Shown here: in pieces, positions 1-24,568 of the stretch
How the letters are laid out: the number at the start of each line of letters is the position of its first letter
Position numbering within the stretch: the stretch's first letter is position 1
NCBI GenBank assembly: GCA_021775315.1
Contig: JAJFIC010000027.1
Span: forward strand, 8,759-72,758
Reading direction: 5' to 3'
DNA length: 64,000 bases
Origin: Paracoccaceae bacterium
GTDB lineage: Bacteria > Pseudomonadota > Alphaproteobacteria > Rhodobacterales > Rhodobacteraceae
Translations under genes and position numbers: made by a program
Notes under the pieces: model-generated
Told to the model about the DNA's origin: nothing
The model's database searches: none
Seen by the model: the letters and a program-made list of their open reading frames with translations, nothing else

Positions 1-3000
1 GCCTGGGATTGATCACTTCCTTAGTAATAAGAAGTTCGGCTTTTTGCTTTGGCTTGATCTCTGAACAAACTGCCGTGTTGTACACGACCACCTGATTGCC
101 CGTGGGGTGAAGGGTTATTTCCTGCCCCTGCGGATCATAAGACACATCCCATTTGCAATTATCTGGAAATCCGGGAACGGTTTGCGCGATTTCCGTCACG
201 GTGCACTGCGTGCCTACATTCAACCCGGTCAGGATCTCGGTGAAACCATTGCCAATGTTCAAATCGACATTGTGATTTGAAGAAGGGCCACAATTAACAT
301 TCACTGTGAACTCGGCTCCTGACAAAGGCAACGGCGGGTTTATTGCGGACATGTCCGGTTTTTTGGTAATAATCAGTGCAGTTTCACCACCTTCCTTTGC
401 TTTGCATATCACTTCGTTGACAACAGACAGCACATTCACACTGTTGCTTAGGATTGAAAGGTTCGCGCCAGCCGCGACAACCGTTCCATTGAAATTGTAG
501 ATCGGTGCAACCCAGACAGGTTCGCCTTTCCTACAAATTTCAGGATCAAGCGGGCCGTTTATTTGCTCGGGCGCAAATTCAGTAACGCGGCAATCGTTGG
601 ATCCCGTGCTGGCACTGGTTGGAACAAGAACCTGCCCCAAACCGCCGACGCCAGAACCCGAAGCCACGGCAGGCGTCACGATACCAACAGAAATCGTGTG
701 AACCGGTCCGCTGCACGCGACTTCGAATTTGAACTCTGCGTCCGCAATGGTGCCATGCGTATTGTTCAGAAATGTTTTTCTGATCAACAGTTCGCTTGGG
801 ATCGGTGCAGGGCAAGACACGCGGTTCACAACGCTCAGATGTGCCGGATCAAGACCGACCGTGGTGCTTTGCCCATTAGGATATTCAGCGGCCCATTTGC
901 ATCCCTTCGGAGGGTCCGGTTGATTTGGCGACGGCAGCACTTCCACGATGTTGCAAACCGCCCCGACCGGCACATTTGTGTGAGAAGCCGAGTAGCCATT
1001 TGCAAAGTTTAATATCAGCGGGTTCGGCGTGCCACCGGATGGGGTACAGGTGACATTGACCCAAAAATCACCAGAGCCGGGCATCTTGCCCTCAAAAGAC
1101 TTTGTAACGGTCAGGGTGCTTATTCTGGGTTCGCACACCAGTTCATTGATCACTTCAACGTTTGCCTGGCCACCTGATGGAACGTTAATTCCGCCGCTCG
1201 TGGCTGCACTTGCAGGAACGTAAACCGGCGCGCGCCATACCGCGAGGTGGGTTTTTTCGCAAAACGCGAATTCCGCATTTGCCTGATCCAGATCGAACGG
1301 ATTCAGAATTCCGGCTTCACTGACCGTGCAATCGCCACCGCCGCTGTGAACCGGGAAGTTCAGATGGGTGTTGCCGCTGGCAGATTGACCACCTTGAACG
1401 CCTGCAACGGTCACGTGCTGATTTGCCGTTGGGTTGTTTGCGTCAAAAGTTGGGGCGGTTGCCTGGCTGCAGGACACATCAAATTGATAATCCAGTGTTG
1501 GGATCGTGCCAAGTGTATGATTCAAAACCGTTTTTGTGATTTCAAGATCGCCATGCTCCAACACTCTGAAGCATTTTGTTTCTGAATCAGCTGGCGGATG
1601 GGTGAACCAGTCTTCATCTGCATTGATACCGGCCATCACCGCCGACGCCGTGTTGCAGAATTTGTCGCCGCGCGTAAAACCATCGACTTGATAGGTCGCT
1701 GTAACGGCTTCACCGCCATCAAAATCACCTAAACCCAAATCGAACGGCAGTAATGGAAACGGGGCCAAACCGTTCGGCCGCCAGACGCAATCCACACTTC
1801 CGGGTGTGCCCGGGATTTGAAAACAAGTGGACCCAAGGACGTTTAGCGAACCGGGGACAACTCCGAAATCAAGTGTCGATGTTGTGTTTGTTAACGGCGA
1901 AATCACGTCTGACAGCAATATGCCGTTCCAGTCGTTATTGTTGCCCCAGCCAACCAAATCGTCGCCAAGATTGCTGACAGATACTTCAAAGACCGGCGAT
2001 GGGCCGCCTTCCCAGGTAAGTCCGTTTTCCACAGTTTTGCTGACCGAGATGTCATAGCACTTCGGCAAAGGCAGCGACAGTGAGCTCCAACTATCCCAAT
2101 CCGTCTGATTGGATGGATTTGGCACTGCCGTCCCCGTGGTTGGGTTGGTTAGGCTATAAATCCCTGACGGGCCCGATGGCGGAAAGGGCAGGTTGTTGTT
2201 GTACGTGCGTGAAATATCCATCAGGGCAATGTTTTCAAGATGGGCAAATTCGTCGCCCTTGCACAAGGATTTGTCAGTTGGTTGTTTGACGTTGATCGTA
2301 ATATCACAGACCAATTCAGCCCCTGCCGCGTATTCCAAAGGACCGAAATCAATAATCCGCGCCCCCTGACTGGGCAGGGTGTTATGGCTGACAAAACCTG
2401 ATAAACCGCTGTTTGCCGGAAAATCTGGCATGGCGCCAACCGGGATCACCGGCTTGGTAATGTCCAAAACCGCGCAGCTGTATTCATAGTCAAACTGCAT
2501 TCCAACGGCATAATCGCTTTGGAAAATCCTAATGGCGTCATAGGTGGTGCCGACTATTCTGGATTGGCTGTCATTGTTGGAAAACAGCACCCGGTATTTG
2601 ACATCCGTGTTAAAAACGATCTTTGGGTTTTGGGTTTTCTTGACGACCTGAAAATTACACTCATCCGCGTTGGCCATTTCCACCACCGCGTCATCGTGCA
2701 TCGCATAGTTTACGTCGTGAAATGTACCATCAAAAAACTCAACATTAACAGGGCCATAGGCTGCCCAAGCGCGGTTTCTAATCCGATTGAGCGCGTTAAT
2801 ATCAAGGCTGTCACAAGTCAGATCATCAAAGGTCATCTGAAACTTGATCACAGCCTTGTCGCCAGCGGCCAAGGTAATATTTTGCGGGTTGAGTTCCCAC
2901 ATCTGATGGTGTGCGCCGTAATAGTTAAAATCCTGAGGCGAGTTTGAACTGACGGTGCTGCACTGGCTGTCAGGACTTGCCTGATTGCCATTGGAGTCTT

Positions 3001-4426
3001 CAAGCGTGCAGTTCCAATTGGTCAGCATCTCGGCCCGAAAGCCCGGCGTGCCCGCGAATTGTAGCAGCGTGTCGCGCAGGCGAATATTGTTAACGGTCTG
3101 GGCCGGAATGCCGGACGCTCCGCTGATGTTTTCAAGGATTATTTTGAAGTCAACCACGCCAGTGGTCCAATCGACAAGACCACCAGTGCCACCAATGGCT
3201 TTTGACACAGTAATAATAGGGTCGGGGGCGGTGGTGGGAGGAGGAGTCGGGCAATCTGGATTCAGAAAGGTTTCACCGGTTTCGATGTTAAACGCCGCAA
3301 CATCCGTATTATTTGCTGCATTGGCTTCAAAAATTGTTCCAACGGTTTGGCCGTTTCCGTTCACATATGTCTGGTTGAAGAAAACAGTGTTGTTAATGCC
3401 GTCTGTGCCAAAACGGGTGCATTCAAGGAATTTGCTGTATTTGACTTTGTAGGTAAGGGTGATTTCGTCCTGCGGACCCAACTCGCCATTTTGGCCCGCC
3501 GGAAATTGCGCCATGAACAAATCGCCGGGGTTTATCGAACCCACAGTGATCGGTGAGACCACCGGCAGCGAAACGTTGCTGGGCAACACAACACAATCCC
3601 CACTTGCGTTGGTGGTCGCACAAGAAAACTCGGTCAGGCTTGCATGAAAGGCTACGCTGTTGGGCATAAGCGCTTGCTGATCGTGTACGCCGAAACCCTG
3701 GCCCAGAAGCACGGTTTGACCGGTGCTGGCAGGGCTTTCGTTCTTGATGACAACTGTATATTCAACCTCGACCGGACCGCCGGACACGTCAATAAATGAC
3801 TCAGACGCAGATTTTGAAATACTGACATCGACCGGGAACTGGAGCGGGATATCCGTGTCATAACCAACATGATCTGAAACGAGGGGGCCCCAATCGCTGA
3901 TGTTTCCCGGCGCATTGATGGGATCAAAAACGCCGATGTTGTTTTCCTCTTCAAAGGTATTTGGATCGCCGGAAAAGAATCCGTTTATGGCGCAGGTCGT
4001 GGTCTGGGCCCCGTTGCTGTTAAAATCTGCGTGCAAAACATCCGGTGGTCCGAAAACCACGCCAAAGGCGCTCACCGGAACATCGGGAGCACCATCTGTT
4101 GAGCAAGACATAGAAACAAAAGTAAAACCCGCTGGCAGATAGTCCTGAATCCGTTGATCCGCATTGGGTGCCGTTGTGTCAAAATCAATTTCCAGGCCAA
4201 AGGTCACGGGGGCGTTCGCATAAAGGCCGGCATATCCGTCCAAAATTGGCGTCTGGGAACAATCGTTCAAAATATCAGAGGCATGTGTATTTGAACCGAT
4301 AGGGCAAAGATATTTCGTGACTGAATAGTCCGCCGGTTGAGCAATCGCATAATGAGCCGGCGCAACAGCCAGTAAAAGCGGTAAAATTAGACTTTTCAGG
4401 AGACTGGTGACATATCTAACTTGCAT
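1..4426 (-). CDS. Giant secreted repeat-domain surface protein (putative adhesin); 3' end cut by the window edge, >=1475 codons
   Basis: Absent from the ORF track because it runs off the left edge. Manual minus-strand translation from ATG 4426-4424 (RBS GAGGGAAAA upstream) stays open to base 2; the last residues ...AELLITKEVINPR were checked base by base at 61-2. N-terminus MQVRYVTSLLKSLILPLLLAVAPAHYAIA|QP looks like a Sec signal. DUF11-like segments (VDVSISKSASE..VEYTVVIKNES; ITVSKAIGG; YDISVSKTVENG) are followed by Cys-paired modules (LEITKTV..GDCTVSE; LTVTKSF..VGAVCNIVE..GCKWAAEY). None of the four listed minus-strand ORFs in 1-4426 is in this frame. Confidence 0.85.
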   Translation of the reverse strand, partial: MQVRYVTSLLKSLILPLLLAVAPAHYAIAQPADYSVTKYLCPIGSNTHASDILNDCSQTPILDGYAGLYANAPVTFGLEIDFDTTAPNADQRIQDYLPAGFTFVSMSCSTDGAPDVPVSAFGVVFGPPDVLHADFNSNGAQTTTCAINGFFSGDPNTFEEENNIGVFDPINAPGNISDWGPLVSDHVGYDTDIPLQFPVDVSISKSASESFIDVSGGPVEVEYTVVIKNESPASTGQTVLLGQGFGVHDQQALMPNSVAFHASLTEFSCATTNASGDCVVLPSNVSLPVVSPITVGSINPGDLFMAQFPAGQNGELGPQDEITLTYKVKYSKFLECTRFGTDGINNTVFFNQTYVNGNGQTVGTIFEANAANNTDVAAFNIETGETFLNPDCPTPPPTTAPDPIITVSKAIGGTGGLVDWTTGVVDFKIILENISGASGIPAQTVNNIRLRDTLLQFAGTPGFRAEMLTNWNCTLEDSNGNQASPDSQCSTVSSNSPQDFNYYGAHHQMWELNPQNITLAAGDKAVIKFQMTFDDLTCDSLDINALNRIRNRAWAAYGPVNVEFFDGTFHDVNYAMHDDAVVEMANADECNFQVVKKTQNPKIVFNTDVKYRVLFSNNDSQSRIVGTTYDAIRIFQSDYAVGMQFDYEYSCAVLDITKPVIPVGAMPDFPANSGLSGFVSHNTLPSQGARIIDFGPLEYAAGAELVCDITINVKQPTDKSLCKGDEFAHLENIALMDISRTYNNNLPFPPSGPSGIYSLTNPTTGTAVPNPSNQTDWDSWSSLSLPLPKCYDISVSKTVENGLTWEGGPSPVFEVSVSNLGDDLVGWGNNNDWNGILLSDVISPLTNTTSTLDFGVVPGSLNVLGSTCFQIPGTPGSVDCVWRPNGLAPFPLLPFDLGLGDFDGGEAVTATYQVDGFTRGDKFCNTASAVMAGINADEDWFTHPPADSETKCFRVLEHGDLEITKTVLNHTLGTIPTLDYQFDVSCSQATAPTFDANNPTANQHVTVAGVQGGQSASGNTHLNFPVHSGGGDCTVSEAGILNPFDLDQANAEFAFCEKTHLAVWRAPVYVPASAATSGGINVPSGGQANVEVINELVCEPRISTLTVTKSFEGKMPGSGDFWVNVTCTPSGGTPNPLILNFANGYSASHTNVPVGAVCNIVEVLPSPNQPDPPKGCKWAAEYPNGQSTTVGLDPAHLSVVNRVSCPAPIPSELLIRKTFLNNTHGTIADAEFKFEVACSGPVHTISVGIVTPAVASGSGVGGLGQVLVPTSASTGSNDCRVTEFAPEQINGPLDPEICRKGEPVWVAPIYNFNGTVVAAGANLSILSNSVNVLSVVNEVICKAKEGGETALIITKKPDMSAINPPLPLSGAEFTVNVNCGPSSNHNVDLNIGNGFTEILTGLNVGTQCTVTEIAQTVPGFPDNCKWDVSYDPQGQEITLHPTGNQVVVYNTAVCSEIKPKQKAELLITKEVINPR
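2..1546 (-). repeat. Tandem 756-nt (252-codon) bipartite coding repeat inside the giant protein gene; two full units plus the start of a third
   Basis: Unit starts LEITK (Leu codon at 1546), LLIRK (790) and LLITK (34) are spaced exactly 756 nt apart. Each unit is module A (..TKTxLNxTxGTI..F.V.CS..DC.V.E..) plus module B (..V.V.C....G..C.V.E....P..CKW...Y....V.N...C). Confidence 0.8.
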
Positions 4427-4552
4427 AATTTTCCCTCGAAATTTTTGAACGAACTGTTTTATCTGCGCCATCTTGTGTGGTTCATTCTGGGCTGATGCCC
4501 GGTTTTTGAAACCCACGAGAGTCTATTGTTTTGGGATTCGGGAAACCTGTCG

Positions 4553-4568
4553 CCTAGCAATTGCTAGG
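4553..4568. promoter_or_regulatory. Perfect 16-bp palindrome CCTAGCAATTGCTAGG in the divergent adhesin/LuxR intergenic region; candidate operator
   Basis: Read directly from the sequence. It lies between the giant protein ATG (4426, minus) and the LuxR-type gene (4695/4863, plus). It is followed by a GGGTTT-N8-AAACCC dyad at 4566-4587. Confidence 0.45.
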
Positions 4569-4631
4569 GTTTGTTTTAAAAAACCCCAATGTGGCGATCA
4601 CCGGCAGACAAAGGCCGAAACACTGTCGTTT

Positions 4632-4649
4632 TTCACCCGAAAGGGTGAA
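4632..4649. promoter_or_regulatory. Inverted repeat TTCACCC-GAAA-GGGTGAA, copy 1 of 2
   Basis: 7-bp arms around GAAA. The identical 16-nt core recurs at 5879-5894. Both copies sit in divergent intergenic regions of the island. Confidence 0.45.
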
Positions 4650-4694
4650 TACCAGTCCTGATTTCAAGACCTATCATTTGGCTGATTTTGCTAA

Positions 4695-5297
4695 ATGTGG
4701 TGTGGCGCGATGAGTGTGGACGTTGGAATATTTATGCAAACTCCGGCGGCAATTGTGTCACGAAGCTATCAACTTCAATCCTACAATTCAGAAATCGGAC
4801 GCCTCGATATTTTTCCAATTCTTCTATTGGGGCAGGACGGACAGGATTGCGGGGACGCATCCATGTCTATTTGCAAAAACCTGCTGGAATTGGGTGTCGC
4901 TACAGATTTCCATGAGCAGATCATCGCAACCAACGCGGCAAAGTTTGAGGCAACTTTGCAATCGTCACGTAAATCCGTCAGACGGACGACGTTAGAGGTG
5001 ATCCCAATGAAGCCCGCTGACGATGATAATTCGCCTCAATCCTTTTTGTGGCTTCTGTTTGAAGATCGAATTCAGGCCAAAGTCAGTGAATTTTCAAAGG
5101 CGAATGGCCTTACGGATTCTGAAGCCAAGATATTGGACCTTCTGTCCAAGGGTGCAACTGCGCGGTCCATTTCGGTGCAAACTGGCCGCACATACGGCAC
5201 TACGCGGTGGCACCTTCAGAACATTCTTTCCAAGACCAGAATGCGTTCGCAAACCCAACTGATTTCCGAACTGTTTGTCGAAACTGATCCCTGCTGA
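4695..5297 (+). CDS. LuxR/FixJ-type HTH transcriptional regulator with a non-receiver N-terminal region
   Basis: C-terminal LTDSEAKILDLLSKGATARSISVQTGRTYGTTRWHLQNILSKTRMRSQTQLISELF matches the LuxR-type HTH pattern. The start is uncertain: in-frame ATGs at 4734 and 4863 are alternatives. Confidence 0.7.
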   Translation: MWCGAMSVDVGIFMQTPAAIVSRSYQLQSYNSEIGRLDIFPILLLGQDGQDCGDASMSICKNLLELGVATDFHEQIIATNAAKFEATLQSSRKSVRRTTLEVIPMKPADDDNSPQSFLWLLFEDRIQAKVSEFSKANGLTDSEAKILDLLSKGATARSISVQTGRTYGTTRWHLQNILSKTRMRSQTQLISELFVETDPC

Positions 5298-5374
5298 TCC
5301 TAGGTTTTGCCAGCCATATAGCAATCGTATCTACGTCCCCAATAGTTCCACGTAGCTTTTTCAACACTCTGCGA

Positions 5375-5417
5375 CAAATAAAATACGCGCCCCGCAATTT
5401 GAAATCTGCGAGGCGCG
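5375..5417 (-). terminator. Rho-independent terminator candidate for the small secreted protein gene
   Basis: CGCGCCCCGCA (5386-5396) pairs with TGCGAGGCGCG (5407-5417): 10 bp, one mismatch, 10-nt loop. On the minus strand it is followed by TATTTTATTTG (5385-5375). It lies about 60 nt below the stop at 5475. Confidence 0.55.
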
Positions 5418-5474
5418 AAATTGAGGTCGGGAGATCAAACAACCGGCCAGATTACCGGTTATGCGGGGTTTGCC

Positions 5475-5819
5475 CTATTGCCACTTATATTTGATTTCAA
5501 TGTTTTTACAGCCACCGGGTTGTTCGCTGTTGACACACCAGCAACCGTGATTGGTCGTGCCGCCTTTATGATATCCCGGCCCTGGTTGACCTTCGGCCAC
5601 AATGATATCGGTGTTTACGATCCTGCACTGGAACTTCAGCAACAGATTGGTCAGCTCATAGTCGCCCTTGCCGCCAGTGTTGTCCCGTTGCAGCCACGGT
5701 GTCTGTCCTGCCGCCAGGGCAACGTCTGTTGCGGCCAAGGGAACCTGCACACCGACAGACAGCGCAAGAACCAGCGTCGCGCCGTTCAGAACCTTCTTTA
5801 GTGAGATATTTCGTGACAT
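5475..5819 (-). CDS. Small secreted protein (114 aa) with four Cys; no recognised family
   Basis: ATG at 5819 is preceded by the AAGGAAA RBS; the track ORF 5475..6023 is over-extended. MSRNISLKKVLNGATLVLALSVGVQVPLAA looks like a signal peptide. The mature part contains FQCRIV...NHGCWCVNSEQPGGCKNIEIKYKWQ. Confidence 0.6.
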   Translation of the reverse strand: MSRNISLKKVLNGATLVLALSVGVQVPLAATDVALAAGQTPWLQRDNTGGKGDYELTNLLLKFQCRIVNTDIIVAEGQPGPGYHKGGTTNHGCWCVNSEQPGGCKNIEIKYKWQ

Positions 5820-5878
5820 TTCATTTCCTTTCAGCTTTGCATGTAAGGAAACTTTAGCAATGCCAAATTTGCAAAAAA

Positions 5879-5894
5879 TCACCCGAAAGGGTGA
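5879..5894. promoter_or_regulatory. Inverted repeat TCACCC-GAAA-GGGTGA, copy 2 of 2
   Basis: Identical core to 4633-4648. It lies between the small secreted protein ATG (5819, minus) and the SGNH gene, ending 6 nt before ATG 5901. Confidence 0.45.
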
Positions 5895-5900
5895 AAAGAT

Positions 5901-6929
5901 ATGTTGATCTTGCGAGCGAAAGGATTGGCCGAAATGGATGCCATTGACCGGTTTGAAAAACTGGTGGCTGAGGGCGCTGATGCGCAAGCTAGAAAAGCGT
6001 TCTCTGAAAGTATTGAGGTTCAAAAAACCGGGGCTTTCCGATTTGAAATAAAGGATCAGGAAAACACCCCTACGGGTCGAACCGAAACATTATTTGTAGC
6101 GCCAGAGTTGGAAGCGACACCCGGGGCCAAGGGCGTTTTGTTCCGCAACTTCGCCGCATTGGACAATAAATGGCGAAACACCGTCTATTTTGATGCCTTT
6201 GTCAACAAAGGCGGGACCAAAGTTATCACGCAAGGCGACAGTTGGTTCGCCTTCCCGCTGGTCGAGCCGGTTGATGTGGCGGAATGGCTTGCCAAACAGA
6301 TGCCCGTTTTCGCGATGGGATGCCCCGGCGACGATGTTACCGACATGGCTAGCGGTCAAAAGATGGCCGATCTGGTGGCGGCGCTGAAAGAAACAAATGC
6401 AGAAATAGTTGCCTTGTCAGGCGGTGGAAACGAACTGATCGGTGATGATTTTCCGACGGTGCTTCGAACGCCGGATCATGCTTTATCAGCGGTCGACTTC
6501 ATCGAGCCCGAGCAGCTTTCTGAAAAGATCGCCAAGGTCATTGATGGCTTTGAAGAAATTATTCAAAGGCTGATTTCAGTGGATCCAAAAGTTCAGATTT
6601 GCGCCCATAGTTATGATTATCCGGTTCCACGCCAGCAAAAAGCGACGTTTTTGGGGCCGGTCCTAAGCGATCTGGAGATACCTGATAAATATTGGATTGG
6701 GATATGTGCCCATATCATAGATCAGTTTGATGACGCGCTTGTTCATCTGGCGAAGCGGTATGCAAAAAACTTCTTTCGGGTGGATTTACGGGGCATTGCA
6801 GGTGATCGCAGTGCCAATTGGGCCGACGAGATACATTTGAACTCTGCCACCGCGGCGCTTGCGGCAAATGAATTCATCGTGCAGTTTAAAAAAAGGTTAG
6901 GAAGTGCCTTGAAGCTGCATGACCCTTAG
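5901..6929 (+). CDS. SGNH/GDSL-family hydrolase (esterase/lipase-like) with a ~100-aa N-terminal extension
   Basis: Block I VITQGDSWFAFP, block III-like LSGGGNELIGDDF, block V NWADEIHLN (DxxH). No signal peptide seen. Alternative start ATG 5934 (MDAIDRF) with an AAAGGA RBS. Confidence 0.65.
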   Translation: MLILRAKGLAEMDAIDRFEKLVAEGADAQARKAFSESIEVQKTGAFRFEIKDQENTPTGRTETLFVAPELEATPGAKGVLFRNFAALDNKWRNTVYFDAFVNKGGTKVITQGDSWFAFPLVEPVDVAEWLAKQMPVFAMGCPGDDVTDMASGQKMADLVAALKETNAEIVALSGGGNELIGDDFPTVLRTPDHALSAVDFIEPEQLSEKIAKVIDGFEEIIQRLISVDPKVQICAHSYDYPVPRQQKATFLGPVLSDLEIPDKYWIGICAHIIDQFDDALVHLAKRYAKNFFRVDLRGIAGDRSANWADEIHLNSATAALAANEFIVQFKKRLGSALKLHDP

Positions 6930-6949
6930 GCACGCAATTCAGTGAGAAA

Positions 6950-8578
6950 ATGACCGACGATATTGGAACGCATCTGACCAGCTTGGAAATGCCAGCAGAG
7001 TTGGCGACAAAATTCCTTTCGCTTTATGAATGTTTGTCTAATCCAGAACACACGGAATTGCTTATCCAAACCATCGGCGACTGGCTGGAGGAAGAGGACA
7101 ATGCGCTCTACATCAGAAGTTTAGAGCGACACGCAGAAACCGTTCGAAACCTCGTTATTGACGTGCTGAACGAGGCACAGAACCAAGAATATTCGACCAG
7201 AAAACCGACATATCAAACGACAAAGCACAAAGTTACTGGTCTTGAGTTGGTGGATGTTGAAGCCCAATTGGGGGTGTCCTTTGTCGCCGATGACGTGCCA
7301 ATTTATGGCAGTTGGATAAACGGACAAGAACAGTCGAAAATCTTTCAGGTCGTCGATGAAAAGGGGCAGGGCCATCTTTGTCTTGCTGCCAAAACGAAAA
7401 TATCTGACAGCGAAACTGCCCTGAAATTCTGGCTGAATGATCCGGCAATCGCTGAAGCAGCAGAGGAATTGTTGGTCCGTGATCTTTCAATATCTCATAG
7501 CGAATGTTTGGTCTTAAGGGAAATCGCTTTGGGTCTTCGCCGCAGTGAAATCGCCGAGAAGTTGGGGAAATCCAACGAAACGATCCGGTCTCAGATCAAA
7601 TCGATTGCGAATAAAATGGGGGTATCTGGCCAAATTGAGATTGCCGCTGAATTGCGAAATCTGGAAACCGTCGGGATTCCAAGCGTATCCGCGGCGGCGG
7701 CTAAATCGGCAATTGAAAACCATATCGTTTTGCCAGATGGACGAACATTAGAGTATTTGGAATATGGCCCAAAAAATGGCCGGCCAATATTGTTTTTCCA
7801 CTGTTTTTTAAGCGGCAAGCATTTGCCTGCATCTATAGATGAAGCCTTGGCAGAAACCAACTTCAGGATTATTTCGGTTTCACGGGCTGGCTATGGCGGC
7901 TCGTCGATGCACACACCCCTTGCCGCAAGCGTTCTGGAAGCAAATTCAGATGACTTCAGGGCGGTTATTGCCACGCTTGGCCTTGGGCCTTGTTATATTC
8001 TGGCGAACGCCACAGGATTTGCCACAGCGTTCTATTTTGCCGCGAAATACCCCGAACTCACCCGCAAAATTCTTGGGCTGGACCCGGTTCCGCCGATAAG
8101 CCGCCTATCAGATATGGGAAAACTGGTAGGTCTTTTTAAGGCGTCCGCTTTGACGATGACCAAAGCACCAGCGACCTTTTCGTTGATGACAAAGTTTGCT
8201 ATGCGCAGGCTTGATACCTTTGACGATGCCACAAAAACCTATCGCCGACACATCCTTTACCCCACCGTTAAACTTGAAAAACTGGAAAGCCCGGAAGGCA
8301 TCGACGCGGGAACCAGGAATGTTCAGGATCTCAGGGTAAACCATCTGAAGCAATGGATGGCCGAGGCGCAGGCCTTTCGAAGTGACTGGTCAGCGCTGGG
8401 CCCTGAATCCAACCGACGCCCAGAGGTGATTTTGTTCCACACCAAAGATAATCCCTTTGTAACCAGCAAAGGCACCCGAGAACTGGCAAAGTTGCTGGAA
8501 TGCGAAATTATCCAATTGGGCGACACATTTCCTTTTTTAGAGCCGCATTTGAAAACAATGTTAAAGAGAATTGCTTAG
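6950..8578 (+). CDS. Three-part protein: unknown N-domain, central LuxR-type HTH, C-terminal alpha/beta-hydrolase fold that looks catalytically degenerate
   Basis: HTH: LSISHSECLVLREIALGLRRSEIAEKLGKSNETIRSQIKSIANKMGVSGQIEIAAEL. Alpha/beta fold: LEYLEYGPKNGRPILFFHCFLSG ... CYILANATGFATAFYFAAKYPE, where the nucleophile elbow reads A-N-A-T-G instead of G-x-S-x-G. ... LGDTFPFLEP stands where G-H-x-x-x-x-E is usual. Confidence 0.7.
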   Translation: MTDDIGTHLTSLEMPAELATKFLSLYECLSNPEHTELLIQTIGDWLEEEDNALYIRSLERHAETVRNLVIDVLNEAQNQEYSTRKPTYQTTKHKVTGLELVDVEAQLGVSFVADDVPIYGSWINGQEQSKIFQVVDEKGQGHLCLAAKTKISDSETALKFWLNDPAIAEAAEELLVRDLSISHSECLVLREIALGLRRSEIAEKLGKSNETIRSQIKSIANKMGVSGQIEIAAELRNLETVGIPSVSAAAAKSAIENHIVLPDGRTLEYLEYGPKNGRPILFFHCFLSGKHLPASIDEALAETNFRIISVSRAGYGGSSMHTPLAASVLEANSDDFRAVIATLGLGPCYILANATGFATAFYFAAKYPELTRKILGLDPVPPISRLSDMGKLVGLFKASALTMTKAPATFSLMTKFAMRRLDTFDDATKTYRRHILYPTVKLEKLESPEGIDAGTRNVQDLRVNHLKQWMAEAQAFRSDWSALGPESNRRPEVILFHTKDNPFVTSKGTRELAKLLECEIIQLGDTFPFLEPHLKTMLKRIA

Positions 8579-8579
8579 T

Positions 8580-9359
8580 ATGACTGAAAACGAAAAACAT
8601 CTTCTGCCGCCCGGATTTACGCAAGAGTGGTACGAAACCGGGCATATCAATACGACCCTGATTATTGCCCGCCTCGCAGGTGTCCAAGATCACCTTGCCC
8701 AGCAAATTGCAATTTATTGCCAGCTGCCGGATTATTTCAAGATGACCTATTCTGCCGGCACACCTTTGTGGGCGTGGATCAGCGGCAAAGGCAAAGATGC
8801 CGAGGTGATTTCCAAAATTCTACACGGTTTCCATGGTGGTGCTCAGGCTGAAGTCGAACGCCGCCAGCGGTTTTTCCGTGATCTGGTGCGAGATCAAATT
8901 ATGCGGCAGGAAGACGTCTGGAAAATCGGTTTCACGGTTCATGCTTTCGGTGATTCCTACGCTCACACCTTTCTGGATGAGGCCGGGCAGCGCTCGGCTT
9001 ACGGCTACCCAATGGGGCACGGTCTTGATTTCCTTTTTTGCGTCAAGCCCGACCACATCTCAAAACATCCCGACTTATACATGGATTATTGCGCCGCGCT
9101 TTTCTGGGCGCTTTGCGGTGAAAAAGCCCAAGACAGCGTCGAATTTGCCGGGTTTGAAGGCGGATTTCGCGCCGTTCGGATGCATCGCAACTATGTCCAA
9201 GGCACAGCCGGTGAAAAAGAAAGCATCGTTTCGGATTTCATAATTCGAGGGTCGTGTGACCGCACCAAACACGCAGACATGAAGGCCGCGATGGCGGCGC
9301 TGGACTATGACGAGGTTATTGGGTTTTTGGAGGGGGTGGGCGCGCAGCTAACTCGTTAA
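8580..9359 (+). CDS. Hypothetical protein with zinc-phospholipase-C/P1-nuclease-like His/Asp motifs (tentative)
   Basis: ATG 8580 lies 1 nt after the upstream stop. Motifs: ETGHINTTLI, ILHGFHGG, FTVHAFGDSYAHTF (compare the H-x3-D-x(n)-H zinc site of Zn-dependent PLC), PMGHGLD, KPDHI. No signal peptide. Confidence 0.4.
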   Translation: MTENEKHLLPPGFTQEWYETGHINTTLIIARLAGVQDHLAQQIAIYCQLPDYFKMTYSAGTPLWAWISGKGKDAEVISKILHGFHGGAQAEVERRQRFFRDLVRDQIMRQEDVWKIGFTVHAFGDSYAHTFLDEAGQRSAYGYPMGHGLDFLFCVKPDHISKHPDLYMDYCAALFWALCGEKAQDSVEFAGFEGGFRAVRMHRNYVQGTAGEKESIVSDFIIRGSCDRTKHADMKAAMAALDYDEVIGFLEGVGAQLTR

Positions 9360-11011
9360 CTGCGGTTCCAGCAATTGGCATAAGGCTGGTTTTCGATGTC
9401 CAGCCAAAATTTCTGTGGGTACTTTAAGTTTCTCAAAAAATGCGGATTTTCCATGCTCATGGAAAGCAACTTGACCATCCTTGTTCGCCAGCCCCAAGGT
9501 TCAGGCGGCTTTTTTGGGTCGTATAAATAGGCGTAAAGTGAATGAGCACTGAACCCATCCCTTATTCCGGCGACCTTATAATTCGCACCAAATGATTCTT
9601 GACAGATTTTGTCAGCGTCAGTGATATGGGCAGGAGGAAGCAAAGGTAGTGTGGCCATAACAACACCGCTTGTCCAAAAGGGCCTTGGGTCCTTCACTCC
9701 AACTATCAAATTATTACCCTCATCGCGTTCGAGCCCCTCTGGCATTGACCAATTTCCCGATTTATCAATGCACAGCAATGGAAGATAACTACGACAGCTG
9801 GTCGCTACCGCATCTAAGTTTGAAGCATTCCTGAATTTTGCATCTGGCCCTAGGTCTGTACGGGATCTGTTGTCCAAATCCACGCTGCCGTAATGATCAC
9901 AGTTTTCTCGCCCGAATATCAGTTTTCGAAGGTATGAGACGCTGGAATTGGCCTGGCACCCGAAAACACCAATTCCAGAATGCGTGCGAGACGGCCCATT
10001 GAAAGTCCAAGCGTAGCCGGACAATTCCGCGTTAGCGATTGCGTAGCCATCCTGGAAAACCTCCTTTGAATCAAAGGTCTGTGTCGGTTGCCTGGGATTA
10101 TAGATCAACAATATCAGAATCAAGCCTAACAAGAATAGAATGACAATTCCGATGACCGTTTTCGTAAGAACTGAGAGTTTTGAATACTTTTTCTGTGCAG
10201 CCGATTGCAGGCTCATCAAATCAGACAGGCCCTGCACAGCTTCCGCATCTGGATTTGGGTTCCGCGAAAATTCAAGATACCCGGCAGAGTTCGTCACATC
10301 CAAATATGGCCTAGTCTCTTTGCCGTCCTTGTTGCGCTGCGAATGAATATACCCGCTAATGTCTATTAGGTTGATTGTTGCCTTGCCTGGAGCAGCCTCA
10401 CCTGATTCAACACCTCGAATGAACGCGTCAGTGAATAGCGAATAAGGTTTCCCGGTCTCATCGACGGTTTCATATGCACTTGCGCCTGATTGCGACGCGC
10501 CCAATACATAGGTGCCGGTCCCTTTGGGATCAAACGCCGCATTCAGCAATCCGCCACTAAAGTCAGCAGAGCGCGCGGTAAAGCTGCCATCATCGCGAAA
10601 CGCACCGGCGTTACAGCAATCCAGCATCACCACTTTCTTTTCGGAAAACGATCGTTCCAGTTTCTCGCGAATGTAGCTGGCGTTAAGGGATACCGCGTCG
10701 TAGTTTTCGTTTGTTGTTCCCTTAAGCGCCAAAAACAACTCGCCTGAATCTCCGCGAATGCCGTGGCCCGCATAGTAAAAGAACAGAAAATCTTCTTTGT
10801 CGGCATTGCCAAAAAACCGCGAGACTTCGTCGCGAAAATCTTCCAAATTCAGGTTTGATTTGACTATGACATTTTTATCATCGAACCCAACATAGTCCTT
10901 CTTTAACAATTCCGTAAGTCGTTGAACATCTTCCGAAGTCGCCAGAAGCGGTTGAAAACTTTTGTCTAGAAACTTGTTATTGTGAATAAGTAAGGCGCGC
11001 TTGACCATCAT
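9356..11011 (-). CDS. Membrane-spanning caspase-like (peptidase C14) protein: cytoplasmic caspase domain, one TM helix, Cys-rich periplasmic domain
   Basis: KRALLIHNNKF...DFLFFYYAGHG (His) ...KKVVMLDCCNAG (Cys) form the caspase His-Cys dyad. K-rich QKKYSKLSVLTK precedes the TM helix VIGIVILFLLGLILILLIY (aa ~284-304). About 247 aa with six Cys follow. RBS GAAGGG; ATG 11011 lies 12 nt after the upstream stop. Confidence 0.8.
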   Translation of the reverse strand: MMVKRALLIHNNKFLDKSFQPLLATSEDVQRLTELLKKDYVGFDDKNVIVKSNLNLEDFRDEVSRFFGNADKEDFLFFYYAGHGIRGDSGELFLALKGTTNENYDAVSLNASYIREKLERSFSEKKVVMLDCCNAGAFRDDGSFTARSADFSGGLLNAAFDPKGTGTYVLGASQSGASAYETVDETGKPYSLFTDAFIRGVESGEAAPGKATINLIDISGYIHSQRNKDGKETRPYLDVTNSAGYLEFSRNPNPDAEAVQGLSDLMSLQSAAQKKYSKLSVLTKTVIGIVILFLLGLILILLIYNPRQPTQTFDSKEVFQDGYAIANAELSGYAWTFNGPSRTHSGIGVFGCQANSSVSYLRKLIFGRENCDHYGSVDLDNRSRTDLGPDAKFRNASNLDAVATSCRSYLPLLCIDKSGNWSMPEGLERDEGNNLIVGVKDPRPFWTSGVVMATLPLLPPAHITDADKICQESFGANYKVAGIRDGFSAHSLYAYLYDPKKPPEPWGWRTRMVKLLSMSMENPHFLRNLKYPQKFWLDIENQPYANCWNRS

Positions 11012-11023
11012 AAATACCCTTCG

Positions 11024-12145
11024 CTAAATATAAGTCAGCCTGTCATTGTCAAACTCGTTTTGCAAGGCAGCCATCGAATGGGCATAGTTGCTGATCCGTT
11101 TCGCGCCTGCGAAGTGGATGCCGATGACGTTGGTCGACCCACTTCCAAGGTCAATCACAGGTGAGCCGGAATTGCCGCCAAGCGTCGTACAATCATGGCC
11201 AAAGACGGTGTCTTTGTGGTCCGCTTCAATATCCGCGAACGAGGCTGAAATCGTGCCGGGGCAATAGCGTTTGATGCCGTATTCGCTTTGAAACAGGTCC
11301 TTTAGCAATGTGAACCTCTCGGTGCCCGCTTGCGGCCGTCCGGGGTATCCAAGCACATAGACCGTGCGGTCAAAGATCACGTTGCTGCGCGTTTCTTCAA
11401 GCGACAAAGCTGCGGGGAGTTTTCGGCGAAACCAGCCGATTTTGAGTGGAATTATGGCGTAGTCGAAGTGATCAAAGCTGGTCCCTGTTTCGGATTTCGC
11501 ATTGCTGGTGCTGGTTCCGTTCGGCTTAAGTTTGATCTCACGACCGCCTTCTCCGGCATCGGCAAAGGATATCGTGGCTCCGTCGCGGATTGTCCAGACA
11601 TCGTTCGTTTCCTGACCGATTACAGTCAGCACATGCCGGTTGGTCATGATCTGATCACCTGTGACCACAAACCCGGTGCCTATCTGCTGACCTTGAAAAT
11701 TAATTCGCCCGACAGACCGGGCCGTCGTTTCAATTTGCGACGCATCTGCGACAGTTTCCCCTTGCCATGGTCCAAGTGCCGCCGTGGTGTAATCAAGCCG
11801 GCCATCCTTGAAATCAATCACGGGTCGAATGCCTTCTGCAATGACGATCGCTTCGAGGGCAATGTTTTCATTGGGCGCCAATTCGGCCCTGGCAGCGTCT
11901 TTTGACAGTTTGCTAACCGCCAAAGTCGCGCTTTCAATCAGTGCTGCCTTTTGTTCGGCGGCCAATAGTTCAATATTCGGGATTTCGGACAACATGGATA
12001 TCAGGCTTTGCGCGCGATCCTCATCCAGTTTCCTGTGCTCGGGTGGCACAATTATCGAAGCGCGTGGAATGTATTTCTGCGGCTGGTCGCCAGTTTCGGC
12101 TCCGCGATTGCCCAGAAGATCGATATATTCAATGGCTGAGCGCAT
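11024..12145 (-). CDS. Cytoplasmic trypsin-like (Trypsin_2 / S1-type) serine protease with a ~150-aa N-terminal domain
   Basis: Triad motifs IMTNRHVL (His), FDYAIIPL (Asp), TTLGGNSGSPVIDL (Ser). No signal peptide. GGAG RBS before ATG 12145. Co-oriented with the caspase-like gene and separated from it by 12 nt. Confidence 0.8.
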   Translation of the reverse strand: MRSAIEYIDLLGNRGAETGDQPQKYIPRASIIVPPEHRKLDEDRAQSLISMLSEIPNIELLAAEQKAALIESATLAVSKLSKDAARAELAPNENIALEAIVIAEGIRPVIDFKDGRLDYTTAALGPWQGETVADASQIETTARSVGRINFQGQQIGTGFVVTGDQIMTNRHVLTVIGQETNDVWTIRDGATISFADAGEGGREIKLKPNGTSTSNAKSETGTSFDHFDYAIIPLKIGWFRRKLPAALSLEETRSNVIFDRTVYVLGYPGRPQAGTERFTLLKDLFQSEYGIKRYCPGTISASFADIEADHKDTVFGHDCTTLGGNSGSPVIDLGSGSTNVIGIHFAGAKRISNYAHSMAALQNEFDNDRLTYI

Positions 12146-12360
12146 CTAACACTCCAAAATGAAATCTGTTTTTAAAACAATAGAAACGGAAATGCATAAT
12201 ATGCAAACAAACAATGATGCCGAATTGCGTGATTTGGTAAGACTTGCGCCCCTTGGTCACGGGAAATTATTTAGTGTCCAAAGTTTTAAGACTTATAGCC
12301 GGGTCTGCTTGACGACAGTTTCCTTTCAGTATCGTATCAGCCGGAACAAGGGGAACGTCC

Positions 12361-13563
12361 ATGCTTTCCATTAATCCTGACCGCTTTCTTTCTGATCTCC
12401 ACACGCTTCGTCAATTTGGAACAAGCGGCATCGGAAAGGGCGTGGTGCGACCTGCCTATTCAGAGGCGGATATCGCGGCGCGGGATTGGTTGGCAGAGCA
12501 GATGAAAGCGTCGGGCCTGACGCCACATTTCGACCCGGTTGGCAATCTTTTTGGTCTGACCGACGTGCCTTCGATACTGTTGGGGTCACATACCGATAGT
12601 CAGCCTGAAGGCGGCTGGCTGGACGGCGCCTTGGGCGTAATCACAGCGCTGGAAATTGCGCGTGCCGCTAAAGAGTCCGGTAGCCCTGCGGTTTCTGTCG
12701 TTTCGTTTCAGGATGAAGAGGGACGGTTTGGTGTGACAACAGGTTCAGCCGTCTGGAGCAAAGAAATAACGCTAAAGGATGCCGATGCCTTGACCGACCG
12801 GGATGGAATTGCCTTTGGCCACGCTCGTCAGGCCATGGGGAAACGTTGCAAAGACTTCGTCGATCCTGCCCAATTCACAGGCTTCATAGAATTGCATATC
12901 GAGCAGGGTCCATCCCTTGATCAGTCCGGTGAAAAGATTGGGGTGGTGACTGACATCGTCGGTATCCGCGACATGAAGATGACCTTTCAGGGCCAGCAAA
13001 ACCACGCAGGCACAACGCCAATGGCAATGCGGCGTGATGCGTTCCAAGCGCTTTCAACGTTCAACCATTTATTGAACGACCGCCTGCGCAATGTGGTTAC
13101 ACCGCGGACAGTCTGGACAATTGGGCATGTATCTTTGCACCCAAATGCATCTTCAATCGTTCCGGGTGCCGTCACATTTTCAATGCAATGGCGCGACAGC
13201 GACGCCAGCAGGCTGACACGGATGGAAGACATTATTCGCGCTACCGCCGCTGAAGTATCCTCGGAAATGGAAATAGGCGTGACCTATGGCCCGTTGCTTG
13301 GGTTGGAGCCGGTACAGATGGATAAGCGCCTACTTTCAGCCCTCAAGCTGGCCGCTGAAATCGAAGCGCCGGGTTTGTGGCGGACCATGCCTTCGGGGGC
13401 CTTGCATGACGCCACCAATGTTGCTGCAATGATGCCCGTTGCGATGTTGTTTGTGCCTTCTATTGGTGGTATCAGCCACGCATTTCAAGAAGATACCAAA
13501 GAAGACGATTTGGTAACCGGGCTTCGGGTGCAAGCGCGCGCCGTGGACGCACTGGCGTCGTGA
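12361..13563 (+). CDS. M20-family amidohydrolase (allantoate amidohydrolase / N-carbamoyl-L-amino-acid hydrolase type)
   Basis: [41 protein letters not shown] motifs. AAGGGGA RBS before the ATG. Confidence 0.8.
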
Positions 13564-24256: not shown

Positions 24257-24568
24257 GAACGTCTAAAAAGCATGGGTTCATTTTCGGATTTGGGGACGCG
24301 ACGCTGGCGCGCGGCTGAGGCCCGGGAAGTCCGCAAAAGACCGTTTCCGCTCTTTCCCCATTCGCCGCCTTGCCGCCTGCAAGCGTGACTAGGGCAACGG
24401 TGAATGGTTCGCCCGGAAGCGCGGGTTCTGCTCAGAACAAAGTGCCGGGTCGTCTGGTCCCATATTGAAAGGACCAGTGCCTAAAGTCCGCACCTATCCT
24501 ACGCAAGCCTTTGAAACCACGCGCAGAAACGTCGTGAAAACTGGTAATACGGGTTTGCAGAAAACGAA

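Follow-up and report, generated by a model that had tools for sequence, protein, structure and literature searches.

Gene content of the locus

In the present study we analysed a 64,000-nucleotide stretch of a Paracoccaceae bacterium contig (JAJFIC010000027.1), hereafter the window, in which a minus-strand gene pair, T-C (11024-12145 and 9356-11011), runs convergently to three plus-strand genes, S-A-P (5934-9359), to form a five-gene unit (Table 1). The letters stand for trypsin (T), caspase (C), SGNH hydrolase (S), LuxR-HTH/alpha/beta-hydrolase (A) and DUF6765 protein (P).

Table 1. Genes, domains and sequence elements of the cassette and its flank in the window.
Feature	Position (nt)	Strand	Description
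Giant secreted protein	2..4429	-	>1476 aa, DUF5979 repeats, runs past the left window edge
Palindrome, second identical copy	4633..4648	.	Intergenic; giant secreted-protein gene on one side, small LuxR gene on the other
LuxR/GerE-type regulator	4695..5297	+	200 aa; Pfam GerE E=1.7e-5; palindrome 47 nt upstream
Small secreted protein	5475..5819	-	114 aa, signal peptide, divergent from S; peripheral member
Palindrome TCACCCGAAAGGGTGA	5879..5894	.	Divergent promoter region of S and the small secreted-protein gene
S	5934..6929	+	SGNH/GDSL hydrolase, ~100-aa N-terminal extension
A	6950..8578	+	542 aa, three parts; N-terminal region (aa 1-175) uncharacterised
A, LuxR/GerE HTH	7490-7645	+	aa 181-232; Pfam GerE E=5e-8
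A, alpha/beta-hydrolase fold	7724-8509	+	aa 259-520; Abhydrolase_1 E=2e-11
P	8580..9359	+	259-260 aa, all-alpha, DUF6765 family, invariant His/Asp motifs
C	9356..11011	-	551 aa
C, ectodomain "type 1", putative sensor	9359..10102	-	aa 304-551, 6 Cys
C, transmembrane helix	10103..10159	-	aa 285-303, Lys-rich stretch ahead, hydropathy maximum 3.33
C, caspase-like (C14) domain, cytoplasmic	10262..11011	-	aa 1-250, His83 + Cys132/133
T	11024..12145	-	373 aa, cytoplasmic trypsin-like serine protease; first gene of the T-C operon
T, trypsin domain	~11117-11680	-	His171/Asp228/Ser326

The open reading frames of T and C are as the first-pass annotation had drawn them, and so is their 12-nt junction, in which the T stop codon (TAG, 11026-11024) is followed by the spacer CGAAGGGTATTT, carrying GAAGGG, and the C start codon (ATG, 11011). 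In T, a Trypsin_2 domain (PF13365) spans aa 156-343 (Pfam, E=7e-15); the predicted triad is complete and each of its residues is invariant in the seven orthologs aligned, and the predicted lack of a signal peptide agrees with the absence of any hydrophobic segment (Kyte-Doolittle maximum over 19 residues, 1.18). A defence-associated PADLOC model matches aa 54-364 of T (E=1e-29). The gene just after a gasdermin (NF051890, 234 bits; locus L016), on its downstream side, encodes one relative of T, and another relative lies among TIR_2, CHAT and TPR-S genes (L015). T is 33% identical to the protease encoded directly after gasdermin in Sphingomonas quercus. No gasdermin is present here, no EACC1 gene at the cassette, and PADLOC recognised no complete system.

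Peptidase_C14 (PF00656) covers aa 4-203 of C (Pfam, E=6e-18), and the proposed His-Cys dyad, which aligns in real profiles, is invariant among the orthologs. With their catalytic residues kept, T and C both look like active proteases. Against the NCBIfam model "caspase, EACC1-associated type" (NF047832, cutoff 140 bits), C of the window scores 138.5 bits and its Palleronia ortholog 160.6 bits, and by sequence it belongs to the EACC1-associated caspase subfamily. Judged from such relationships, the ancestry of T and C is that of conflict systems, in clades tied to death effectors. The architecture had earlier not been recognised as a described system; its parts, however, are known, namely an EACC1-associated caspase and a protease clade found beside gasdermin and TIR/CHAT.

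The single membrane helix proposed for C is borne out, as are the 248 aa with six Cys that follow it. The proposed topology, caspase inside and Cys-rich domain outside, also stood up: Lys and Arg number four before the helix versus two after it in the window, with the same bias in 8/8 orthologs, and the type 1 ectodomain (consensus GMTW...LPxLC...GxGYRxAEFHDG...RFWVxINDQxANCW) falls in an unnamed family of large size (630 representatives at E<=1e-3) that is otherwise secreted, which supports its outside location. Members of this family are fused to secreted M10/S8 proteases, at their C-termini, and to Ig-repeat proteins, or stand alone with a signal peptide. The ectodomain had no match in Pfam or PDB, and its AlphaFold pLDDT is 33. 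In L003-L006, C carries a "type 2" ectodomain unrelated to type 1; since the caspase domain remains ~60% identical between cassettes, this swap follows a pattern typical of sensor diversification.

Turning to the plus strand, the S reading frame opens at ATG 5901, although the start in Table 1 (ATG 5934), with AAAGGA just upstream, is likelier. Its catalytic set (Ser114/Gly143/Asn177/Asp309/His312) is complete, the blocks GDSW, PGD, GGNE and DEIH are invariant among eight orthologs, and the orthologs match Lipase_GDSL_2; we regard S as a putative esterase or lipase effector. The segment ahead of the SGNH core is conserved (G..G..F[RH]...DN..RN), and its "FR" motifs are kept in part, the first being lost in 3/8 orthologs.

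The neighbour previously described as an alpha/beta-fold hydrolase, A, does have that fold but is a LuxR-HTH protein whose nucleophile is missing: three PDB alignments place Ala354 at this position, and the region of the catalytic His falls, in a weak alignment, on an invariant Pro528. Lacking the nucleophile, A is likelier a binder or regulator than an enzyme. The HTH is kept in every ortholog, and the A stop codon lies 1 nt before the P start, or overlaps it, at every locus. A lacks a conserved counterpart of the Arg-Gly in the characterised hydrolase zymogen, and no cleavage site was identified among the cassette proteins. We take it as a putative regulator, and maybe a protease substrate or an inhibitor of P.

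P, for which a TTG at 8571 is an alternative start and whose stop codon overlaps that of C, is the best-conserved cassette protein (53-74% identity), with 30.5 bits to DUF6765 (cutoff 26.6). The earlier label "PLC-like" finds weak support in a sub-threshold similarity to Zn_dep_PLPC in 5/16 members. Its AlphaFold model (pLDDT 84) gave no significant fold match when compared with PDB by Foldseek, and the protein has almost no extension past the conserved core. Giant RHS and Tc-like proteins carry this domain as their C-terminal cargo, RHS and SpvB-TcdB-RHS proteins doing so in at least six metagenomic loci, and this position is the slot for toxic domains. P may be a toxic metallo-phosphoesterase, and we treat it as a putative effector. 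Signal peptides are absent from S, A, P and T.

Conservation and surroundings of the cassette

S, A and P lie convergent to T-C in 8/8 independent loci with contigs long enough. All five genes are found, with order and orientation unchanged, in the window, L001, L002/L007, L003, L004 and L011, and L005, L006 and L014 match this layout as far as their contigs reach. The junctions S/A, A/P and T/C are overlaps of 4-11 nt or gaps of <=20 nt, and the flanking genes differ at each locus. The adjacency of T and C is kept at every related locus, which is more than chance would give. What had been seen as a two-gene system is thus a tight and conserved operon, but it does not stand alone: S, A and P are its invariant partners at every locus, and the unit is therefore a five-gene cassette. 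The first-pass annotation had set the neighbouring hydrolases aside and taken the effector to be unknown, a view that does not survive the constancy of these same three partners. Among the related loci examined, no close relative of C or P occurs outside the cassette context.

The cassette is very rare (4 of ~186,000 species genomes; 16 P-clade proteins among 5.8 billion), and its hosts are marine Alphaproteobacteria only. No obvious defence island surrounds it in the loci examined. HipBA lies near the cassette in L001 and an IS element in L011; in L013, LolA-like and SlipAM-like genes precede S and P, all in one operon; and several loci have envelope-related genes nearby, among them YkuD, BacA, M15 peptidase and those for PG_binding_1 proteins. 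As for the low-G+C island suggested earlier, the shift exists but is mild, ~0.47-0.53 over 1-21 kb versus 0.55-0.63 beyond.

The palindrome TCACCC-N4-GGGTGA occurs in two exact copies in the window versus 0.16 expected. It is found beside cassette genes in L002, L003, L011, L013 and L014, in a degenerate form in L001, and was not found in L004-L006. With seven occurrences in 187 kb of cassette loci versus none in 726 kb of controls, it is specific to cassette promoters, and it is a candidate operator for a LuxR-type HTH. Several copies lie in divergent promoters shared with secreted-protein genes, i.e., those of the small and giant proteins in the window, a WxxW protein in L002 and a giant protein in L003; the L011 copy lies in one shared with an ectodomain-paralog gene, secreted ectodomain paralogs adjoining the cassette there. 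At the corresponding position L002 has an ORF to which the small secreted protein is 43% identical (E=1e-22); this protein also matches Mucin2_WxxW weakly. The giant secreted protein is possibly a member of the same regulon, and giant DUF5979 or PG_binding_1 proteins flank the L003-L006 cassettes too. The 200-aa LuxR/GerE regulator is window-specific, with no homolog in the other loci, and its membership in the cassette is uncertain.

Proposed function and alternatives

The two proteases come with an esterase, an enzyme of toxin type and a regulator that has a DNA-binding domain, so that the cassette is most likely a variant of known bacterial modules in which proteases trigger cell death or defence, and the signal-triggered proteolysis proposed earlier is judged its most plausible reading. 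C would be a single-pass membrane receptor that uses its variable outside domain to detect a cue, either extracellular or from the envelope; the cue would activate the cytoplasmic caspase domain, probably through clustering, and C, with or through T, would act on the S-A-P proteins, presumably by cleavage. Two cytoplasmic enzymes would thereby be unleashed, the toxin-type metallo-enzyme P (DUF6765) and the esterase or lipase S (SGNH), which might harm the cell's own lipids or nucleic acids, so that the sensing cell dies or stops growing, in the manner of other protease-gated modules for defence or programmed death. A would repress the cassette promoters by binding the palindrome; given its translational coupling to P, it may in addition keep P inactive, antitoxin-like, until A itself is cleaved. 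To this full scheme, a sensing caspase and a protease that unleash P and S under the regulation of A, we give an even chance. Several points count against it: no cleavage site was identified, and the candidate motifs are weak; PADLOC recognises no complete system, and obvious defence islands are lacking around the cassette; P is a putative enzyme at most, in view of the Foldseek and Zn_dep_PLPC results above; such rarity is unusual for a successful defence system; and extracellular sensing is atypical of phage defence. Moreover, the operator, the conservation of the HTH and the linkage to secreted-protein genes would suit a role in gene regulation equally well.

That role leads to the alternative we entertain most seriously, if only tentatively, namely transmembrane proteolytic signalling, in which C perceives a cue by its ectodomain, A is cut by C and/or T, and a palindrome regulon of S-A-P, small secreted proteins, ectodomain paralogs and giant surface proteins is switched. 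S and P would then be regulated enzymes rather than suicide effectors, with no cell death involved, following the logic of BlaR1/BlaI or of CRISPR-linked protease-sigma-factor modules. The HTH in all A orthologs, the non-catalytic hydrolase fold of A, reminiscent of ligand- or protein-binding regulators, and the palindrome in promoters common to secreted-protein genes are all in its favour, as is the precedent, cited in PMC12642450 (Csx30, CalpT), of transcription regulators set free by proteases. It is opposed, however, by the use of the P family as RHS toxin cargo, by the death-effector-tied clades of both T and C, by L004-L006, where the palindrome was not found, and by a complement of two proteases and two intact hydrolases coupled to a regulator, which exceeds the needs of a relay.

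Unlikely, in our view, is direct zymogen activation, with S (via its N-terminal extension) and/or P as pro-enzymes cut by T or C and A as a transcriptional autoregulator only, never a substrate. The parallel would be with the zymogens of the MBL nuclease and alpha/beta-hydrolase kind; double-cleavage zymogens beside caspases and trypsins have published precedent (PMC12642450, PMC12799240), and S does have a conserved pre-domain segment. Yet the motifs of this segment, the first "FR" being lost in some orthologs as noted, are not demonstrably cleavage sites, P is nearly devoid of any extension, and a non-catalytic hydrolase fold fused to an HTH and coupled to P is left unexplained. Far less probable still is housekeeping of the envelope or its lipids, in which the cassette would process lipoproteins or lipids, with S and P lipid-active, T and C acting as maturation proteases, and no conflict or death role: it can appeal to the L013 operon and to the envelope-related genes near several loci, but is at odds with the extremely sporadic distribution, the missing signal peptides, the flanks that vary between all loci and the toxin contexts of the P family. 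Least credible of all is a self-contained two-gene protease cascade with its substrate elsewhere and coincidental hydrolase neighbours, for although T and C have an operon to themselves, convergent to S-A-P, these three genes accompany the pair at every locus despite unrelated flanks and close C and P relatives occur in no other context.

Comparison with known systems

The protease-gated death or defence module that we favour can be set against several known systems. Two of them offer analogy only: BlaR1 is a membrane sensor-protease that cuts a DNA-binding repressor (BlaI), and type II toxin-antitoxin loci have an HTH protein just upstream of a coupled toxin, autoregulation at a palindrome and removal by proteolysis; the cassette has no sequence relationship to either, and its proteases are of caspase and trypsin type instead of an M56 metalloprotease or Lon/Clp. 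To the RHS and Tc polymorphic toxins it is connected by P, homologous to their C-terminal DUF6765 cargo, although P is free-standing and cytoplasmic, without an RHS shell, a secretion signal or a small downstream immunity gene. With the bacterial gasdermin-protease systems it shares the homology of T to the gasdermin-linked protease and the logic, in which a protease frees a membrane-damaging effector, but here the effector candidates are enzymes (P and S) and the second protease is membrane-bound.

The pairing of a caspase with an alpha/beta-hydrolase, and caspases with a TM helix and an extracellular domain, have already been described (PMC7159879, PMC8195603, PMC12642450), and in vitro, alpha/beta-hydrolase effectors are activated through cleavage by the caspases adjacent to them (PMC12642450). 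As in the LcCaspase/LcHydrolase zymogen module (Kaur et al. 2020; Evans et al. 2025, PMC12642450), a caspase lies beside an alpha/beta-hydrolase fold and proteolytic activation is the expected logic. Unlike that zymogen, A has 542 aa versus ~290, with a LuxR HTH and an extra N-terminal region, and lacks both the nucleophile (Ala354) and conserved Arg-Gly sites.

EACC1-type caspases have been proposed as stimulus sensors that activate effectors by proteolysis, some via a TM helix and an extracellular domain (PMC7159879, PMC8195603), and EACC1 is a protease-activated pore former (Evans et al. 2025, PMC12642450). With the two-gene EACC1-caspase conflict system (Kaur et al. 2020, PMC7159879) the cassette shares the caspase subfamily (NF047832, 138.5-160.6 bits), the N-terminal position of the caspase, ahead of a C-terminal region that varies greatly and can consist of a TM helix and an extracellular domain, and the second position of the caspase gene in a tight two-gene operon. 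It differs in that the 5' partner, instead of EACC1, is a 373-aa trypsin-like protease, and in that it adds the conserved S, A and P.

Extent and distribution of the cassette

The two-gene protease operon of the first-pass annotation, encoding a trypsin-like protease (T) and a caspase-like protein (C), is part of a larger unit, and the real unit comprises five genes. At six of the six relatives of C whose genomic context was examined, T-C faces one recurring trio of genes in convergent orientation, namely S (~330 aa, SGNH/GDSL-like), A (~540 aa, a GerE/LuxR HTH with an alpha/beta-hydrolase fold) and P (~260 aa, with a faint DUF6765 match), although the flanking genes are different at each locus. 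The hydrolase neighbours, which had been set aside at first reading, are therefore conserved partners of the protease pair. A search seeded with P added the full set at L011/L012, one locus with S-A-P followed by the contig end (L014) and one with S-P but without A (L013), and in the tblastn table all five genes were found on every contig long enough. In the window the cassette spans ~5.9-12.1 kb, with S-A-P read from the plus and C-T from the minus strand; the stop codons of P and C overlap inside GTTAAC, and within each operon neighbouring genes either overlap by 4-11 nt or stand no more than 20 nt apart.

The cassette is rare. Only 13 relatives of C were detectable among 5.8 billion proteins, the P clade holds 16 proteins, and four cassette loci were found in ~186,000 species genomes, all from Rhodobacterales or other Alphaproteobacteria; a search of plasmids found none. 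The host itself is poorly sampled, as the large housekeeping-size proteins of the window contig have no cluster-mates at 90% identity. Near 22 kb the G+C content rises from ~0.52 to 0.58-0.63, a tRNA-Glu gene lies at 24569-24643, and this region may be the boundary of the variable region containing the cassette. The features are collected in the table below.

Coordinates of the cassette genes and associated features (window positions unless a locus is named)
Feature	Locus	Position	Strand	Remarks
Giant secreted protein	window	2-4429	-	>1476 aa; signal peptide; DUF5979 repeats; runs off left window edge
Palindrome, copy two	window	4633-4648		TCACCC-N4-GGGTGA
Strong terminator-like hairpin	window	5386-5417	-	12-bp stem then T-run; between small secreted gene and small LuxR gene
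Small secreted Cys-containing protein	window	5475-5819	-	weak mucin WxxW-domain match; divergent from S
Counterpart of the small secreted protein	L002	13260-13574		same position; 43% identity
Palindrome, copy one	window	5879-5894		TCACCC-N4-GGGTGA
S	window	5934-6929	+	SGNH hydrolase
A	window	6950-8578	+	LuxR-HTH/alpha/beta-hydrolase-fold protein
P	window	8580-9359	+	DUF6765 protein
C	window	9356-11011	-	caspase-like protein, 551 aa
T	window	11024-12145	-	trypsin-like protease, 373 aa
G+C rise	window	~21000-25000
tRNA-Glu gene	window	24569-24643
Two tandem secreted 189-aa paralogs of the locus's own ectodomain	L011	5812-6381, 6602-7171	-	54% and 44% identical; beside cassette
S-P without A	L013	2756-8409		last genes of apparent operon with SlipAM-like and LolA-like genes; contig stops after P
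Two TIR_2 proteins (one with CHAT), three trypsin-like proteases and a TPR-S protein	L015	934-9842		around a T relative
Gasdermin (NF051890, 234 bits) and trypsin-like protease, two-gene operon	L016	6183-8167		Sphingomonas quercus; protease is a T relative
Giant RHS-repeat / SpvB-TcdB-RHS proteins with C-terminal DUF6765	L040, L058, L062, L064, L046, L039, L077			metagenomic

The protease pair

The description of the pair in the first-pass annotation held up well. Both reading frames are present, and at their 12-nt junction the TAG of T is followed by the spacer CGAAGGGTATTT, carrying GAAGGG, and then by the ATG of C. T matches Trypsin_2 (E=7e-15) with the triad His171, Asp228 and Ser326, and is soluble, with neither signal peptide nor hydrophobic segment (maximum hydropathy 1.18). 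C carries an N-terminal caspase fold (Peptidase_C14, E=6e-18; His83 and Cys132/133), a single TM helix at aa 285-303 and then 248 residues with six Cys, and in a real alignment of seven to eight orthologs the catalytic residues of both proteins are invariant. The proposed topology, with the caspase inside and the Cys-rich domain outside, is supported by the K/R bias around the TM helix and by the secreted-type family to which the ectodomain belongs.

T has several hundred family members, which are proteases 360-390 aa long that stand alone. One relative at 33% identity is encoded directly after a gene matching a gasdermin model (NCBIfam, 234 bits, cutoff 100), another is situated in what is probably a conflict island (L015), and a PADLOC model covers nearly all of T (E=1e-29); its label, 'nacht', was set aside as uninformative, T having no NTPase domain. 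From the gasdermin, TIR_2, CHAT and TPR-S neighbours and the PADLOC match, it follows that the T clade is found in conflict systems, including beside gasdermin, an effector type activated by cleavage. As for C, the caspase domain of the window scores 138.5 bits against NCBIfam NF047832 ('caspase, EACC1-associated type'), 1.5 short of the cutoff of 140; among the cassette orthologs, that of Palleronia (P0007) reaches 160.6, above the cutoff, and P0002 138.6.

Two types of ectodomain

The region of C behind the TM helix exists in two unrelated versions, of which the window, L001, L002 and L011 carry type 1 and L003-L006 carry type 2, while the caspase domain stays ~60% identical across cassettes as the ectodomain type changes. 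Type 1 falls into a large and unnamed family, for which about 630 representatives match at E<=1e-3 (P0151-P0298 among the matches of the representative search), with the consensus GMTWG...C.PY.GDT.C..LP.LC...Y.GW...G.GYR.AEFHDG...RFWV.INDQ.ANCW. Its members often sit C-terminally on secreted matrixin (M10) and subtilase (S8) proteases, and also at the C-termini of Ig-repeat surface proteins or alone behind a signal peptide. Neither a Pfam model nor a solved structure was found for this family, and a 23-member ectodomain profile gave no significant match to PDB sequences or Pfam; a match to mosquito Spaetzle (E=0.03) was treated as noise. An AlphaFold model of the window ectodomain from three sequences reached pLDDT 33 only and gave no fold assignment; a C-type-lectin-like fold, our first impression, was dropped.

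At L011, two tandem secreted paralogs of the ectodomain are encoded beside the cassette, and these could serve as decoys or co-receptors. They share with S a common divergent promoter that carries the palindrome discussed below. The giant neighbour proteins showed no similarity to the ectodomains at E<=1e-3.

The convergent partners S, A and P

S is a complete SGNH hydrolase, with blocks I, II, III and V represented by GDSW (Ser114), PGD (Gly143), GGNE (Asn177) and DEIH (Asp309/His312), all invariant in eight orthologs. The orthologs match Lipase_GDSL_2, and S carries in addition an uncharacterised N-terminal extension of ~100 aa. The second neighbour, which had been read as an alpha/beta-fold hydrolase, has the fold (Abhydrolase_1, E=2e-11) but Ala at the nucleophile, and is fused to a LuxR-type HTH (aa 181-232) situated between the hydrolase fold and an uncharacterised N-terminal region. 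The nucleophile position of A is Ala354 in three independent alignments to solved hydrolases, and Ala, Gly or Ser in relatives (A/A/G/A/S); the region of the catalytic His aligns, with low confidence, to the invariant Pro528. To judge from these residues, an enzymatic activity of A is improbable.

Conservation within the cassette is highest for P (53-74% identity), which is all-alpha and has invariant His/Asp motifs. It matches DUF6765 (PF20551) at 30.5 bits against a cutoff of 26.6, over profile positions 6-41 of 325 only, and 15 of the 16 members of the P clade have a DUF6765 match. PDB sequence searches with P and with S were both empty. The earlier label 'PLC-like' survives as no more than a lead, the similarity to zinc phospholipase C being sub-threshold (Zn_dep_PLPC, best E=0.027, 5/16 members) and Foldseek giving no significant match. 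The order of the invariant His and Asp residues may resemble the ligand order of the zinc-dependent phospholipase C / P1 nuclease superfamily. The AlphaFold model of P (pLDDT 84) found nothing better than E=0.6 in the PDB, and alpha-toxin gave E=2-4 with TM-scores of 0.22-0.26.

In a metagenome scan, the wider DUF6765 family proved unlinked to T, C, A or S. DUF6765 does, however, recur at the C-terminus of RHS-repeat proteins and also forms the end of an SpvB-TcdB-RHS (Tc-toxin-like) protein. In polymorphic toxins the C-terminal slot holds the toxic cargo, and the position of DUF6765 on these giants therefore implies that it is an uncharacterised polymorphic-toxin cargo domain. Stand-alone DUF6765 genes in marine metagenome contigs repeatedly adjoin a gene for a protein of ~750-776 aa (L024, L025, L028, L030, L033, L034), which in the two loci scanned (L024 and L034) is of secreted type with PPC and DUF6055 domains.

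A candidate operator and the flanking secreted-protein genes

Upstream of S, in intergenic DNA otherwise unalignable between loci, lies the palindrome TCACCC-N4-GGGTGA (TCACCCGAAAGGGTGA in the window). The window, L002, L003, L011 and L014 all have it; a degenerate copy stands in L001 and the symmetric variant TCACCA-N4-TGGTGA ahead of the operon with S-P in L013; in L004-L006 it was looked for and not found. The window holds two identical copies against 0.16 expected. The first separates S from the divergent small secreted-protein gene, the second the giant secreted DUF5979 gene from a small LuxR gene. Counted over distinct cassette loci, seven copies occur in 187 kb, all beside cassette genes, versus none in 726 kb of control loci. 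An Rfam scan of the region was empty, which set aside a known RNA, and a terminator-like call at 5879-5894 was rejected, as it depends on a T-run found in the window only. The palindrome is a plausible candidate for the operator of A's HTH.

Giant DUF5979 or PG_binding_1 proteins and an unannotated ~730-aa protein flank the cassette in L003-L006, and the palindrome stands upstream of the giant gene both in the window and in L003.

Proposed mechanism and competing readings

The cassette is built of recognisable conflict-system parts, and from these we infer a mechanism. The best-supported reading, to which we give an even chance, is a protease-gated effector module. A cue from the envelope or from outside the cell would be sensed by the outward-facing domain of C; its caspase domain would then act, jointly with T or by way of it, on the proteins of the S-A-P operon, and P (toxin-type) and S (esterase or lipase) would be unleashed by protease action. 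A would autoregulate the cassette via its HTH and the palindrome, and, because it appears non-catalytic and is translationally coupled to P, it may also be an inhibitor that the proteases remove. Of the marks of such a type II toxin-antitoxin-like logic, the coupling of the HTH protein A upstream of P and the palindrome are both seen.

The main rival, which we hold to be rather unlikely, is pure signalling: the proteases would cleave A and thereby change the expression of a regulon made up of secreted and surface proteins, by a logic like that of BlaR1/BlaI. Less likely still is a bacterial 'death-receptor' pathway, in which a single-pass membrane caspase bound by an extracellular ligand would, with a gasdermin-type trypsin-like protease, destroy an antitoxin-like LuxR protein; an SGNH lipase and a toxin enzyme of the RHS type would thereby be set free, and a secreted/surface regulon that includes soluble copies of the ectodomain would be de-repressed. 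If true, it would mean outside-in control of bacterial programmed cell death, with two protease classes in series. A sub-variant in which S and/or P are zymogens cut directly seems unlikely. No cleavage sites were identified in the cassette proteins.

Among the invariant columns of an eight-member alignment of A there is no Arg-Gly. Two sets of motifs were weighed as cleavage-site candidates, 'FR' dipeptides in S and, directly behind the catalytic Cys of the caspase, 'AFR' and 'AR[DS]'; their conservation is partial and their role speculative. EAD-type adaptor domains common to the linker of C and the N-terminal parts of T, A and S were rejected, all hhalign probabilities being below 1%.

Control of effectors by proteases increasingly looks like a dominant principle in bacterial immunity and programmed death; to our knowledge, nearly all characterised examples respond to a cytoplasmic signal and couple one protease with one effector. 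As a protease-gated module, the cassette would add a receptor-like caspase with a sensor on the outside that is exchanged from lineage to lineage, a further protease from a different class encoded in that operon, so that a true cascade is possible, two different putative enzymatic effectors, one of them from the DUF6765 toxin family, and a built-in putative DNA-binding regulator with an identifiable candidate operator. It would also open the first route to a function for DUF6765 and for the 'GMTW...NCW' secreted domain, both of them uncharacterised families. Moreover, one host bears a strain name, Palleronia caenipelagi JBTF-M29, and is presumably cultured, so that these predictions would be directly testable.

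Comparison with known systems

No cassette gene or cassette neighbour matches a gasdermin model of Pfam or NCBIfam. Among the closest known systems are the EACC1-caspase two-gene systems, with which C shares a variable C-terminal region of the caspase protein (here the two ectodomain types). Unlike those systems, the cassette has no 5' EACC1 gene, and the soluble, 373-aa T stands in its place; a hidden one was dismissed, as window positions 4000-13000 contain no EACC1-like ORF, EACC1 being a small protein whose one TM helix is conserved and Gly-rich. The canonical small 5' gene does accompany relatives of C that are not part of a cassette, namely those of Nocardia and of a Burkholderia plasmid; in Burkholderia it encodes a Gly-rich hydrophobic helix. 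The caspase - alpha/beta-hydrolase zymogen module resembles the cassette in having a hydrolase-fold gene near the caspase gene, A being one gene away on the convergent operon; however, its two conserved Arg|Gly sites are missing from A, which is a 542-aa HTH fusion.

The pairing of caspases with alpha/beta-hydrolases, EACC1-type caspases whose variable C-termini may consist of a TM helix and an extracellular domain, EACC2 caspases with CHASE2 and the proteolytic activation of adjacent effectors have already been described (PMC7159879, PMC8195603, PMC12642450). Our literature searches returned no description of a fixed five-gene set, of a trypsin-like protease replacing EACC1, of DUF6765 and SGNH partners, of an HTH fused to a non-catalytic hydrolase fold, or of the candidate operator; all of these features appear to be new.
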